The position numbers and the translations under genes were made by a program. The notes below the pieces were generated by a model, which did no database searches, was not told where the DNA came from, and saw only the letters and a program-made list of their open reading frames with translations. A DNA stretch of 11,614 nt from Candidatus Altarchaeum sp. (GTDB lineage: Archaea; Altiarchaeota; Altiarchaeia; Altiarchaeales; Altiarchaeaceae): contig JAGWDQ010000031.1 of NCBI GenBank assembly GCA_018260615.1, positions 1 through 11,614 on the forward strand. Direction: 5' to 3'. Positions within the stretch are counted from its first letter, which is position 1. Every line of letters starts with the position of its first letter. Shown here one piece after another: positions 2,834-8,105 of the stretch.

Positions 2834-3009
2834 AAATTTTAAACAATGATAAATTTTACCGAAATTTTGAAAATTCATAATATCGTAAGACCTTATGATT
2901 ATCAGGAAAAAGCAATAGCAGAAATAGACAAGGGAAAAAATTTAATCGTTTCAACGCCCACGGCAAGCGGAAAAACGCTGCTCGCAGAATACGGAATAAT
3001 CAGGGTATT
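2834..3009 (+). repeat. 176-bp direct repeat, copy 1 (hel308 5' end plus 12 nt upstream); copy 2 at 3127-3302
   Basis: Manual alignment, offset 293, shows 4 mismatches (2947/3240, 2950/3243, 2962/3255, 3006/3299). Confidence 0.97.
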
Positions 3010-3127
3010 GGAAACGCACCTTTTTTTAGATGACTTAAGTAAAAAAAGTAACCTCACTTCGTTCGGATATTTTCAGACAAGTTTGAAAATTGCACCAAAA
3101 AAAGCTGCAAAAATCTCCGATTTTTGA
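2846..3127 (+). pseudogene. Truncated duplicate of hel308: first 54 codons, then read-through into the palindromic element
   Basis: Matches the Hel308 N-terminus including TPTASGKT up to GIIR. It then diverges into element-encoded sequence and stops at TGA 3125-3127. Confidence 0.9.
3010..3126 (+). mobile_element. 117-bp palindromic repeat element (REP/MITE-like), long form, flanked by a 176-bp duplication
   Basis: Homologous to the reverse complement of 7589-7663. Contains hairpins CTTTTTTTA/TAAAAAAAG (3020-3048) and CAAAAATC-TCC-GATTTTTG (3108-3126), plus an internal module of about 41 bp carrying CCTCACTTCGTTCGG. Confidence 0.8.
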
Positions 3128-3302
3128 AATTTTAAACAATGATAAATTTTACCGAAATTTTGAAAATTCATAATATCGTAAGACCTTATGATTATCAGGA
3201 AAAAGCAATAGCAGAAATAGACAAGGGAAAAAATTTAATTGTCTCAACGCCCACAGCAAGCGGAAAAACGCTGCTCGCAGAATACGGAATAATCAGGGCA
3301 TT
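3127..3302 (+). repeat. 176-bp direct repeat, copy 2 (5' end of intact hel308)
   Basis: Matches 2834-3009 at 172/176. Confidence 0.97.
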
Positions 3303-5172
3303 AAATAATAACGGAAAAGCCATATATGTCGTGCCGATGCGCGCATTAGCAAGCGAGAAGTTCAGGGAATTTGAAATTTATAAAAATTTCGGATACAAGG
3401 TCTTGTTAGAAATGGGGGATCTGGAAAGTTTGGATGTTGAAACGTTGAAATACAAATACAGCCGTTTAAATTTTGATGTTTTATTCGCTACTGCTGAAAA
3501 ACTTGATGCGATTTTGAGGGCAAATGTTTCCCTGAAGGACTTAAAATTTTTGGTTGTTGATGAAATTCATTTTCTCGGCAGTCCCGACAGGGGCTCGGTC
3601 TATGAAATTTTAATTGCCAAATTAAGAAAAAATTTTCCCGATATTCAGATTCTGGGGTTATCCGCCACTATTGGAAATACAGATGAACTGGCAAAATGGT
3701 TAGATGCATCATTAATTCAGTCATCATTTCGTCCCGTTCCGCTTACAGAGTTCATTGAAACAAAAAATGACTTAAATACAATAGTTGCTGAAAATTTACC
3801 CAAAGGCAACATTCTGATATTCACAAATTCAAAAAAGAGATGTCAGGACTTGTGCGGGGAATTAAGCGAACTTGCTCTATTTAAAAAGAGCAATGAGCAG
3901 GAATTAAGCGAAGAAATTTTAAACGCAGTTGAATCGCCGACCGAGCAGTGCAAATTGCTTACAAATTTTGTCAGGCACGGGATTGCCTTTCACCATGCCG
4001 GACTGGCAAACAAACAGCGCGAATTAGTTGAGGAAAATTTCAAAAACAGCCGCATAAAGGTAATCATTGCCACTCCGACATTAGCTTACGGAGTAAATTT
4101 GCCCGCACATACGGTAATTATTGAACGACTAAACCGATATACTAATAAAGGGATGGTTGAAATTCCTGTGTTAGAGTACAAGCAAATGTCTGGCAGGTCA
4201 GGAAGGCCAAAATATGATAAAGAAGGAATCGCAATAATTAAGGCAAATAAAGCCAAAGAAAAACACATCCGTGAAAAATACATAAACGGAAAGCCGGAGG
4301 ATATTGAGTCATATATTTTAGCAGAACCAAATTTAAGATTTCATACATTGTCATTAATCTCCGAAATTTCCGATGTTGATGAAATTGTCCGATTTTTTGA
4401 TACGACCTTCGGAATGTTCAGATACGGGAATCCGGAAGCGGTTGAAAGAAACATTATTAATATCATTAACGGATTAAAGGACTGGAAATTTGCCGAAGAA
4501 AAAAATACAAAATTAAATTTAACTCCTGTGGGAAACAGGATTAACCAGATGTATATAGACCCGTTAACCGCAGAGCGATATATTGTAAATTTTTTAGAGA
4601 TGGCCGAACAATTTGGCAGTTATGATGACATCACTATCCTTTTTATTTTATGCACGGCAACGGAAATGCCTTTGCTTTACATAAGCAGGGGTGAAGAAGA
4701 TGACATTCTCGGTGAATTTTTGTCACAGGAGAATCATAAGGAACTTGAAGAAACAGGCGGGGATACTTATCTGGAAAAATTTAAAACCGCAAACATGTTC
4801 AATGCGTGGCTCAATGAGAAATCGGAAAATTACATTTATTCAACATTTAATGCACCGCCGGGACTGCTGCATCAGAAGGTTGAAATTTTGCAGTGGCTTA
4901 CTTATGCCGCCTGCGAAATAGGAAAAATTTTAAAATTTCCACAAATAAAACAGCTGATGGAGATGCATATAAGAGTTAAGTATGGAATAAGGAAGGAATT
5001 AATTGAACTGATAGGTGTAAAAGGAATCGGAAGAGTTAGGGCAAGAGCGTTGTTTAATGCGGGAATTGTAAATAAAGACATGCTCAGAAAGGCCGGTGTT
5101 GATGATATTGCGAAGATTTTAAAGAGCAAAAAGATAGCAGAGGATATTAAAAAAGAGGTTGAAATGATATAG
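3139..5172 (+). CDS. hel308: Hel308/Hjm superfamily 2 (Ski2-like) DNA helicase
   Basis: Walker A TPTASGKT, DEIH, SAT, FHHAGL, ATPTLAYGVNLPA, QMSGRSGRP and a C-terminal HhH motif (GVKGIGRVRAR). 677 aa. Confidence 0.93.
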   Translation: MINFTEILKIHNIVRPYDYQEKAIAEIDKGKNLIVSTPTASGKTLLAEYGIIRALNNNGKAIYVVPMRALASEKFREFEIYKNFGYKVLLEMGDLESLDVETLKYKYSRLNFDVLFATAEKLDAILRANVSLKDLKFLVVDEIHFLGSPDRGSVYEILIAKLRKNFPDIQILGLSATIGNTDELAKWLDASLIQSSFRPVPLTEFIETKNDLNTIVAENLPKGNILIFTNSKKRCQDLCGELSELALFKKSNEQELSEEILNAVESPTEQCKLLTNFVRHGIAFHHAGLANKQRELVEENFKNSRIKVIIATPTLAYGVNLPAHTVIIERLNRYTNKGMVEIPVLEYKQMSGRSGRPKYDKEGIAIIKANKAKEKHIREKYINGKPEDIESYILAEPNLRFHTLSLISEISDVDEIVRFFDTTFGMFRYGNPEAVERNIINIINGLKDWKFAEEKNTKLNLTPVGNRINQMYIDPLTAERYIVNFLEMAEQFGSYDDITILFILCTATEMPLLYISRGEEDDILGEFLSQENHKELEETGGDTYLEKFKTANMFNAWLNEKSENYIYSTFNAPPGLLHQKVEILQWLTYAACEIGKILKFPQIKQLMEMHIRVKYGIRKELIELIGVKGIGRVRARALFNAGIVNKDMLRKAGVDDIAKILKSKKIAEDIKKEVEMI

Positions 5173-5200
5173 TTATAAATTTTAATTCGGATGAAATTTT

Positions 5201-7394: not shown

Positions 7395-7494
7395 GTAACT
7401 ATTCAGAGGGTGTCAAATTTACCCGTGAAATTTTTGAAAAAAATACAAAAATTAAAATTTTACTCGTAATTTTTTGGGGTGGCTGAATAGTTAC
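7395..7494. mobile_element. 100-bp MITE, probably IS66 family-derived
   Basis: Perfect 12-bp TIRs GTAACTATTCAG (7395-7406) and CTGAATAGTTAC (7483-7494), with a perfect 8-bp TSD ATTGAATC (7387-7394, 7495-7502). The empty site is visible at 7664-7672. GTAA termini plus an 8-bp TSD fit IS66. Confidence 0.88.
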
Positions 7495-7588
7495 ATTGAA
7501 TCAAATAATCTGCTCCGCTTTTTTAAATTTTCCATCCTCTATTTCAATTTTACACAAAGAGCCTTTTTTCATTTCAACCTTAAAATTT
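7495..7588 (-). repeat. Duplicated 3' end of sixA (copy A, interrupted at its left edge by the MITE; true edge at 7386); copy B at 7664-7758
   Basis: Offset 170, with 3 mismatches (7516/7686, 7535/7705, 7581/7751). Confidence 0.95.
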
Positions 7589-7663
7589 CAAAAATCGGAG
7601 ATTTTTGCGACTTTTTTGGTCCAACTTTTTTTACTAAGGATACTCAAAAAAAGGTGGAAGTCC
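7589..7663 (-). mobile_element. 75-bp palindromic repeat element, short form, flanked by a duplication of about 95 bp
   Basis: First 20 nt (CAAAAATCGGAGATTTTTGC) are identical to the reverse complement of the 3010-3126 right end. Also shares TTTTTTGGTnCAA, CTTTTTTTACT and AAAAAAAGGTG. Lacks the 41-bp internal module. Confidence 0.8.
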
Positions 7664-7670
7664 AATTGAA

Positions 7671-8105
7671 TCAAATAATCTGCTCTGCTTTTTTAAATTT
7701 TCCACCCTCTATTTCAATTTTACACAAAGAGCCTTTTTTCATTTCAACCTCAAAATTTCCAAAATTATTTATAAAATTTCCAAGAAACGGCTGATGCCCC
7801 ACAAGCAAAATTTTATCTTTGTTCATAATCCTAAGATGATTTAAAATTTCATCGGGATTTGACGATGGATTCAGCAATTCGGTTATCTTTATTTCGCCAT
7901 TAAAATTTATTTCTTTTGCAATTATTTCTGCGGTCTGGATTGCCCTTGTTAGAGGGCTTGAAAATATTTCTGAAATTTCCGCATCTAAATTTTTCAGTAT
8001 TTTTCCCACTTTCTTTGCCTGCTTTTTACCTTTTTCAGATAACTCCCTCAATTCATCCGGCTCTCCTTCTAATGCATCCCCGTGTCTTACAATATAAATT
8101 TCCAT
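7671..8105 (-). CDS. sixA: SixA-type histidine phosphatase
   Basis: RHG motif, LSEKGKKQA, SSPLTRAIQTA and LLVGHQP. Starts 1 nt after the thiD-thiN stop, suggesting an operon. Confidence 0.88.
   Translation of the reverse strand: MEIYIVRHGDALEGEPDELRELSEKGKKQAKKVGKILKNLDAEISEIFSSPLTRAIQTAEIIAKEINFNGEIKITELLNPSSNPDEILNHLRIMNKDKILLVGHQPFLGNFINNFGNFEVEMKKGSLCKIEIEGGKFKKAEQII

Follow-up and report, generated by a model that had tools for sequence, protein, structure and literature searches.

A family of short structured DNA elements flanked by long direct duplications of gene and tRNA termini in Altiarchaeum

How does a short, gene-free piece of DNA come to lie between two long copies of the same gene terminus, with one complete gene being kept beside it? 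The question is raised by a sequence of 11,614 nucleotides from Candidatus Altarchaeum sp. (the window), which is the entire contig C31 (JAGWDQ010000031.1) of an Altiarchaeum metagenome-assembled genome (MAG) designated here G000 (2.23 Mb in 148 contigs, 33% G+C, 87% complete). Two genes of the window, hel308 and sixA, are each accompanied by a second copy of one of their ends, and a small insert separates the copies. Such an insert is called here the element (E), the flanking direct duplicate is called T and the upstream region U, whereas G001-G003 designate the other genomes of the same genus.

The two inserts belong to a family that is real, recurrent and unusual, and this observation is solid. 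Its members are non-coding, measure approximately 50-350 bp and share a common plan that appears when copies are aligned; a literature search found no description of the family, and the long duplications beside its members are accounted for by none of the known transposon families.

Duplicated termini in the window, the genome and the class

A preliminary description of the window had proposed that both loci have the order T-element-T, and both repeat pairs were confirmed. The hel308 pair (2834-3009 versus 3127-3302) is 176 nt long with 172 of the 176 positions identical (98%), and the sixA pair (7495-7588 versus 7665-7758) is 94 nt long with 91 identical positions and three mismatches, or 101 nt long and 96% identical when delimited by a wider repeat comparison (7495-7595 versus 7665-7765). 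The inserts occupy 3010-3126 on the plus strand (117 nt) and 7589-7663 on the minus strand (75 nt, plus one additional A at 7664). The homology claimed for them also held, with their right 38 nt being 95% alike and their left 43 nt 74% alike, and the 42-nt difference in length corresponds to a repeat module nested at 3050-3091 in the hel308 insert. According to the list of open reading frames (ORFs), neither insert holds a gene. It had further been noted that each duplication spans a gene terminus and spares one full gene: indeed, an intact hel308 (3139-5172, with all helicase domains) and an intact sixA (7671-8105) both remain. The features of the two loci are as follows.

2834..3009, plus strand: first duplicate (T1) at hel308, comprising 13 nt of upstream sequence and the first 163 nt of hel308, running on from the native upstream region
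2846..3127, plus strand: residual ORF of 93 aa, made of the N-terminal 54 codons of Hel308 and continuing through the element to a TGA at the element right end
3010..3126, plus strand: E copy 1, family A, 117 nt, at hel308
3010-3015, plus strand: left filler of copy 1, GGAAAC
3016-3027, plus strand: clamp and pyrimidine arm of copy 1, GCACC-T7
3028-3040, plus strand: loop of copy 1
3041-3047, plus strand: purine arm of copy 1, A7
3050-3091, plus strand: nested repeat module of copy 1
3092-3104, plus strand: second clamp and third arm of copy 1, GCACC-A7-G
3107-3126, plus strand: tail hairpin of copy 1, GCAAAAATCTCCGATTTTTG
3127..3302, plus strand: second duplicate (T2) at hel308, start of the intact gene with its ATG at 3139; the first 8 nt, AAATTTTA, equal the element tail consensus
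7495..7588, minus strand: T copy (fragment) of the sixA 3' end, beyond the element tail; position 7581 has the element-type base, not the native G of AAATTTTGAGG
7589..7663, minus strand: E copy 2, family A, 75 nt, at sixA
7646-7663, minus strand: left end and pyrimidine arm of copy 2, GGACTTCCACC-T7
7633-7645, minus strand: loop of copy 2
7620-7632, minus strand: purine arm and clamp of copy 2
7611-7619, minus strand: third arm of copy 2, CCAAAAAAG
7589-7608, minus strand: tail hairpin of copy 2
7665..7758, minus strand: T copy formed by the 3' end of the intact sixA, with the stop codon (7671-7673) and about 6 nt downstream

A structural scan of G000 returned 56 candidates, of which approximately 45 are convincing elements. 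A direct flank repeat of 27-211 nt (median 59), with its left copy ending at most 14 nt from the element, accompanies 33 of the 56, as compared with 9 of 400 random positions, so that the duplications exceed what chance would provide. The duplication length of 95-176 bp given in the preliminary description is too narrow for the genome as a whole; for the family, T is put at 25 to 211 bp. Its length differs at every locus and its sequence at each of the 33. Simple insertions, that is, elements without duplication, are nearly absent in G000, and tandem T+E arrays occur at C39, C70, C53 and G001:C34. The latter copy is anti-oriented with respect to its host gene, which means that the co-orientation seen in the window is not general. 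A look for longer copies carrying an ORF had also been recommended; a search of G000 for flank repeats 300-8000 bp apart with a hairpin beside T1 found none beyond module-expanded copies.

The comparison with G001-G003, which are 77-95% identical to G000 in the flanking DNA, provided the empty alleles that had been sought. At seven loci both the element and the duplication are missing from the same-genus genomes compared, and at six of these the relatives present a single contiguous U-T-gene stretch: hel308, C139 and two loci of C44 (C44a and C44b) in all three genomes, sixA and C20 in G001, the one genome in which these two were read. At the seventh locus, C86, the relatives lack element and duplication, and the upstream context has changed between genomes. 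An element without duplication was seen at none of the seven loci in up to three relatives, and one insertion is shared together with its duplication (G000:C87 and G001:C62). Since related genomes have sites without the element, it is mobile and the inserts are insertions. The copies across the genome and the empty sites in relatives thus support the view, already expressed from the window, of a family of short, non-autonomous, hairpin-bearing mobile repeats. As a separate observation, G001 has at C75:5000-6600 (approximately 880-1210 within that stretch) a second, truncated copy of the hel308 promoter and the first ~300 nt of the gene, in an unrelated context and with tandem ACATAAATTTT repeats upstream.

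Contig ends and N-gaps bear 55-nt overlaps, which points to short-read assembly at k=55. Of the 33 duplications, 14 fall below 55 nt in length and call for no repeat loop in the assembly graph, and the same architecture is present in independent MAGs; for these reasons an assembly artefact is unlikely as the origin of the arrangement. Exact 55-nt duplications do flank N runs in G000 (C65:3500-3600, C88:18297-18306 and seven 100-N gaps); these are scaffolding artefacts of unmerged k=55 overlaps and can mimic short direct repeats. Junction-spanning sequence patterns had no match in metagenome and genome contig collections, which may not include the window's own genome, and the only match of the family-B core pattern there was an unrelated GC-rich contig.

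A covariance model built on family B/C and run on 61 genomes of the class containing Altiarchaeum had matches in 23 of them, belonging to 14 of 31 genera. The copies thus recovered were 33 in G000, 7 in G001, 9 in G002 and 1 in G003, and 390 kb of G001 yielded two more family-B/C copies, both with duplications. In other families the matches are weaker and the architecture is clear. Beyond the genus the element mostly adjoins tRNA genes. Some distant copies lie directly after the tRNA 3' end, with the last 10-29 nt of the tRNA repeated past the element and the pyrimidine arm occupying the expected place of the oligo-T terminator; others lie upstream, with the first 25-42 nt of the tRNA repeated before the element.

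Architecture, junctions and position

Read from left to right, the plan has a short clamp, whose sequence is GAAC, CACC or CGCC. A pyrimidine arm such as CTTTTCTCTTTT follows and is separated by a 3-14-nt loop from its purine complement; then come a linker, a third arm made again of purines, and an AT-rich tail, which reads GTAAAC-ATTAG-AAAAATTTAAAAATTTA in family B and GCAAAAATCTCCGATTTTTG-AAATTTTA in family A, the family of the window. The tail is promoter-like. The pyrimidine arm and its purine complement form a hairpin with a conserved mismatch beside the clamp, and the linker is often invaded by abundant small hairpin modules. Covariation supports this hairpin: 97.4% of the cells are paired and four pairs show compensatory changes, with none of 500 shuffles scoring equally high and slid controls giving 0.

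The third arm was compared with the second in 31 distinct arm types from 14 genera. It agreed better with a mirror copy in 17 and with a direct repeat in none, nine being tied, and many of the mirror matches are perfect over their 11-14 positions (e.g., 13/13 and 14/14); the same comparison restricted to G000 copies, false positives included, gave 10 versus 9. A third arm that mirrors the second is at the same time the parallel complement of the first. The order pyrimidine, purine, mirror purine is the design of an intrastrand purine-motif triplex, and a single strand of the element is therefore predicted to be one that can fold as an intramolecular triplex (H-DNA motif) of the purine type, with the other strand following the pyrimidine motif. 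The "short palindromic element" of the preliminary description was right about the hairpin, yet the element is not simply palindromic, its core being a three-arm pyrimidine-purine-purine mirror motif.

When folded as single-stranded DNA, in a computation that models hairpins only, the sixA copy reached -12.6 kcal/mol (z = -3.75 versus shuffles). The hel308 copy, with z = -1.1, was not clearly below its shuffles because the nested module dilutes its fold. The Rfam database gave no match in the window at an E-value of 1 or lower. The commonest repeat module of the genome, which joins TAACCTCACTTCGTTCGGATATTTTCA to a small hairpin, is present more than 150 times, the copy at 3050-3091 of the window being one of these; it is frequently nested in the linker of three-arm elements and also builds tandem arrays with a 47-48-nt period (C111:5971-6185, C124:1493-1779 and C15:4905-5119).

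Alignment of 29 copies at their junctions showed no terminal inverted repeats, the inverted repeat of the element being internal (first with second arm). An interval of 3-13 nt, with a weakly conserved filler (GGAAAT, GAAAT or GAAT), separates the left boundary from the pyrimidine arm; the left end is a G in 17 of the 29 copies and a purine in 22. The right tail stops 12-67 nt past the third arm. The ends are thus ragged, the left one varying by up to 10 nt and the right one by up to 50 nt. In the window, the T copy that follows the element opens at both loci with 7-8 nt (AAATTTTA) that equal the family tail consensus, which occurs also in the C148 and C39 copies, there outside any duplication. 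As AAATTTTA belongs to the element's own tail, its presence at the junction is a matter of microhomology and not of a target motif, and the AAATTT target site suggested earlier is better abandoned in favour of this reading. The sixA fragment has the element-type A where the native gene has G, several short-tailed family-B copies join their target where the latter continues the tail consensus, and the sequence just upstream of genes and tRNAs in G000 is itself rich in AAATTT. The ATT said to end the T copy before the element survives across copies as a weak trend only.

One end of T always coincides with a gene or tRNA terminus, the other being variable, and an intact gene survives at every insertion. 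The 11 unbiased 5' cases have the start of T 0-13 nt ahead of the ATG, and seven of these genes have native spacers of 52-543 nt. For most tRNA genes the distance from the start of T to the mature 5' end is 0-5 nt (17 nt at one gene, ~50 nt at tRNA-Val). When T covers a 3' end, its outer limit is 1-7 nt beyond the stop codon or, in tRNA genes, the 3' end or the terminator. At sixA, which converges with a mogA-like gene, the outer end of the duplication falls in the 5 nt that separate the two genes. A null model of random insertion with selection only for an intact gene would let the length of T that falls outside the gene take any value from 0 to all of T with equal probability. The observed outside-gene fractions are all ≤0.33, and the seven long-spacer cases would have under this model a probability of roughly 0.33^7, or ~4e-4, by our own calculation.

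Two tRNA-Leu genes, with anticodons CAG (C70:8820-9400) and TAG (C88:18070-18400), are preceded by a copy of their 5' half followed by an element; in both, T ends right after anticodon position 36, and the C70 gene has two T+E units in tandem. The tRNA-Val gene has an upstream pseudo-copy of its first ~52 nt and then a three-arm element (C84:2900-3170 and C59:1790-2050); a repeat module is inserted in the D-loop of the pseudo-copy, and the whole arrangement is found at the two loci.

Other features were noted around the window insertions. The TGA of the residual 93-aa ORF sits 12 nt ahead of the real hel308 ATG, an arrangement in which a fusion peptide of 93 aa could be produced and coupled to the true hel308 start. 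Between mogA and the sixA fragment there is a separate miniature inverted-repeat transposable element (MITE) of ~100 bp (7395-7494), which has dozens of copies across G001-G003. Its terminal inverted repeats are 12 bp long (GTAACTATTCAG/CTGAATAGTTAC), and the target duplication around it measures 8 bp (ATTGAATC; 7387-7394 and 7495-7502). An N6/N4 DNA methyltransferase gene (871-2073, minus strand) is situated 0.8 kb from the hel308 insertion; restriction-modification genes are classical passengers of the process known as insertion with long target duplication (PMC2853133).

Possible routes of insertion

The explanation proposed here joins a mobile family with a triplex core to insertion by template switching, with T marking a gene terminus, and as a whole it is put forward as a proposition that may prove right or wrong in equal measure. 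Template switching during replication or repair, taken alone as the route, is advanced more tentatively, at somewhat less than an even chance. According to it, the element would not depend on a cut-and-paste transposase dedicated to its movement. Near a gene boundary, a nascent strand or a broken end would leave its template, copy a structured element elsewhere and return 25-211 nt behind its point of departure, with the result that T would be copied twice. One junction would be guided by microhomology, which might pair the T-rich, terminator-like left end of the element with the gene terminator or, alternatively, its AT-rich tail with the AAATTT-rich sequence just before gene starts, and the other junction would be ragged. 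The inserted element would then set a T-run and hairpin at the place of a terminator and its tail at the place of the downstream gene's promoter. Among the drivers listed in the preliminary description, hairpin-triggered break repair comes closest to the ragged ends and the microhomology, the mechanism itself being a deduction.

A bolder extension, considered somewhat unlikely, would see in the element a structural DNA parasite that propagates itself and can do without an enzyme of its own. The triplex/hairpin fold of the element would stall or break replication and make it a preferred partner in template switching, so that it would be copied with a duplicate of the flank into gene boundaries, deliver a terminator and a promoter there, and rewire the expression of core genes and tRNAs across the class.

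Several points weigh against these proposals. The triplex is predicted from established H-DNA rules and sequence symmetry. The family A arms of the window are homopolymeric (T7/A7), which is compatible with the three-arm plan and also means that these copies cannot tell a mirror from a direct repeat. Microhomology is clear at the right junction only, being weak or absent at most left junctions, where the frequent G could instead indicate a defined nuclease cut or an RNA 5' end. The best pairwise identity among elements has a median of 0.85, versus 0.97 for the flanking T pairs; a donor search in G000 found no near-identical copy for any recent insertion, and the long tails have no second copy in the genome. 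To reconcile these findings with copying from a donor, one must suppose that the donors are external or were left unassembled, or that gene conversion has acted between the T copies. A transposase could be absent from the 87%-complete MAG or belong to an unknown family, and in other genera no T is detectable beside approximately half of the copies. Finally, G000 contains about 15 inserts of 0.7-5.9 kb between direct repeats of 33-582 bp (90-99% identical) with the same topology, and apart from C124 these have no element at their ends, so that the duplication process is not specific to the element. Their repeats begin a few nt before a start codon, but the list was filtered on an ORF start within 25 nt of T2 and so provides no evidence for start-codon targeting. 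It includes the following.

C44:58373-61847, kb-scale insert
C82:13754-15918, kb-scale insert
C18:3989-6706, kb-scale insert
C127:433-2294, kb-scale insert
C30, kb-scale insert
C38, kb-scale insert
C124, kb-scale insert
C113, kb-scale insert
C87:20408-21968, kb-scale insert
C80:39923-42323, kb-scale insert

The rival that survives best, although unlikely, holds that the element is a non-autonomous transposon mobilized in trans by a transposase making widely staggered cuts, IS1634/IS1549-like or of another sort, and that T is a true target site duplication filled in after strand transfer. Insertion and duplication do occur together at every locus compared, and IS1549 and IS1634, members of a family common in Euryarchaeota, generate duplications of 8-514 bp (PMC2266710), these very long direct repeats being rare in the IS1634 family. 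Moreover, G000 harbours an intact IS1634-family element of ~1.9 kb with a 536-aa transposase (234 bits versus NF033559), present in at least three copies collapsed into one contig (C19, and the contig ends of C97, C39, C8 and C88). However, this resident element ends in the inverted repeat CCCATTAGCACGAAAA and produces a probable 6-bp duplication (CTATAT, at C19), whereas E has ragged ends unrelated to it and no terminal inverted repeats. Nor do the two co-occur over the 61 genomes, which are incomplete and make the comparison indicative only: 15 have E only and 13 have only matches to NF033559, with G018 and G022 (92-93% complete) having E with tRNA duplications and no IS1634 match, and G060 having 30 IS1634 matches and no E. 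A long-direct-repeat transposase of this family, one of the drivers suggested from the window, is not supported by these results; the same applies to the HUH/RAYT (repetitive extragenic palindrome-associated tyrosine transposase) alternative, no gene for which was found in the 87%-complete genome.

Insertion could instead be tied to transcripts, a possibility that appears quite unlikely. T would then be the stretch covered by an R-loop or by the terminal part of an RNA, extending inwards from where transcription starts or terminates, and the element would be joined at the RNA or R-loop ends by nicking at the border or by RNA-templated copying. This would explain why the outer end of T falls where transcripts should start or end, in protein and tRNA genes alike, why T stops right after position 36 in two different tRNA-Leu genes, why the element begins with a purine in 22 of 29 copies and why the highly transcribed tRNA genes are the main targets outside the genus. 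Yet no reverse transcriptase was detected in the genome (87% complete), the tRNA-Val duplication seems to include ~50 nt of promoter, and a preference for AT-rich gene borders accounts for the same positions without any RNA.

A third alternative, distinctly improbable, separates the two events or brings T from outside. In the two-step version a simple insertion would be followed by a structure-induced break and by repair copying the flank across the element; in the import version, the element and a gene start would arrive together from another strain or a paralogue, one of their sides being joined by homology and the other illegitimately; T2 would in that case be foreign and T would mark where homology starts. 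The two tRNA-Leu loci share sequence from the element tail into the tRNA, which fits paralogue spread by recombination, and the tandem T+E arrays (C39, C70, C53 and G001:C34) and the copies without T in other genera point the same way. Against it, no E-only intermediate appeared at the seven loci in up to three relatives, import with homology on both sides would mostly give the simple insertions that are nearly absent in G000, and T pairs are 97-100% identical at many loci.

It is very unlikely that the T-E-T structures are chimeras created in assembly from strain variants, or that they descend from decayed att sites left by integrase-driven elements. The MAG does come from short reads with k=55 scaffolding artefacts, the T copies do differ by a few single-nucleotide polymorphisms, and tRNA ends are classical integrase targets (PMC2853133). 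Yet many duplications are below 55 nt (14/33, which needs no graph repeat), the architecture recurs in several independent MAGs, the inserts are gene-free, and a T that differs at each of the 33 loci is inexplicable by a site-specific integrase.

Implications and comparison with known systems

If the proposed explanation is true, the family would be a tractable model for the unexplained insertion with long target duplication, offering dozens of small, datable events per genome with defined junctions where so far only rare kb-sized ones were at hand. It would also be the first repeat family known to the authors to be conserved by three-way covariation of triplex-forming arms, which would speak for H-DNA or intrastrand triplexes being under selection in Archaea rather than accidents of sequence, and it would make testable the question of DNA structure alone as a driver of repeat spread. 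Since its insertion equips the starts and ends of genes, as well as tRNA genes, with a T-run, a hairpin and an AT-rich tail, copies of the element may act as portable terminator-promoter units. In the annotation of Altiarchaeum-class MAGs, the pseudo-starts, short fusion ORFs and 5' tRNA fragments that they leave behind risk being misread.

The element resembles MITEs and the REP/BIME repeats (repetitive extragenic palindromic sequences/bacterial interspersed mosaic elements) in being small, non-coding, structured, multi-copy and mostly intergenic. Ca. Altiarchaeum hamiconexum is reported to have the highest density of conserved MITEs among archaea (146 per Mb), but MITEs are defined by terminal inverted repeats and fixed duplications of 2-10 bp (PMC11602168), and E presents neither, as it lacks terminal inverted repeats of 10-15 bp, its third arm is a mirror and not an inverted copy, and its duplications vary between 27 and 211 bp. 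Membership in the IS1634-driven elements was not supported, on account of the unrelated ends (CCCATTAGCACGAAAA) and the lack of co-occurrence across the 61 incomplete genomes. A retroelement (SINE-like, group II intron or retron) was likewise not supported, with reverse transcriptase PF00078 (RVT_1) having no match in the 87%-complete G000 and Rfam none in the window, as was an integrase att remnant, in view of a different T at each of 33 loci and no common att core, although no systematic search for integrase genes near the loci was made. Compared with integron attC sites and cassettes, the copies examined are solitary, adjoin core genes or tRNAs and are flanked by duplications. REPs depend on the RAYT HUH enzyme and make no duplication, and the Y1 HUH transposase of RAYT/IS200-like elements (PF01797) had no match in the 87%-complete G000, so that E was not assigned to REP/BIME.

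The closest precedent in Bacteria is the insertion of gene-sized DNA with a long variable target duplication and no mobility gene, described by Nobusato et al. (2000) and by Furuta, Abe and Kobayashi (2010), whose mechanism is unknown (PMC2853133). In both systems there is no mobility gene, the insert is lacking in a relative with a single target copy (here at hel308, sixA, C139, C20, C44a and C44b), more than 30 bp is duplicated (94 bp at sixA and 176 bp at hel308) and the gene is kept intact. The duplications, 46-423 bp there and 27-211 bp here, are variable and often overlap a gene end or tRNA. However, the bacterial cases are single events involving kb-sized restriction-modification gene complexes, and no archaeal case passed that screen, whereas the present family is tiny, non-coding and structured, with dozens of copies per genome, and occurs in Archaea.

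Purine-pyrimidine repeats with mirror symmetry give rise to H-DNA and intrastrand triplexes, and genome instability has been linked to them (PMC4666352). The element has the block order of an intrastrand triplex (pyrimidine, purine complement, mirror purine; 17 versus 0 arm types), and in this it recalls the bacterial repeats TM_ECO/BoxC (Holder et al. 2015, PMC4666352), which are also abundant, conserved and intergenic, built of three consecutive blocks and tied to rearrangement. TM_ECO/BoxC repeats are G/C-rich, nearly invariant and associated with deletions, in contrast to E, whose arms are A/T-rich and covary three ways between copies, which has a clamp and a tail, and which is inserted with duplication of the flank.

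With IS1634/IS1549 (PMC2266710), of a family common in archaea and present in G000, the element shares duplications of tens to hundreds of bp that vary by copy. Those insertion sequences are 1.5-2 kb long, with inverted-repeat ends and a DDE transposase, whereas E has no such ends, no similarity to those of the resident insertion sequence and no co-occurrence with the transposase.

The template-switching events known as fork stalling and template switching (FoSTeS) and microhomology-mediated break-induced replication (MMBIR), together with the flap-derived duplications of FEN1/rad27 mutants, also show ragged ends and microhomology, and they duplicate tens to hundreds of bp in tandem, with a foreign templated segment lying at the joint. 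Those events are sporadic and their filler is arbitrary, whereas here a single structured family recurs as filler, which would make the element a self-propagating passenger of template switching.

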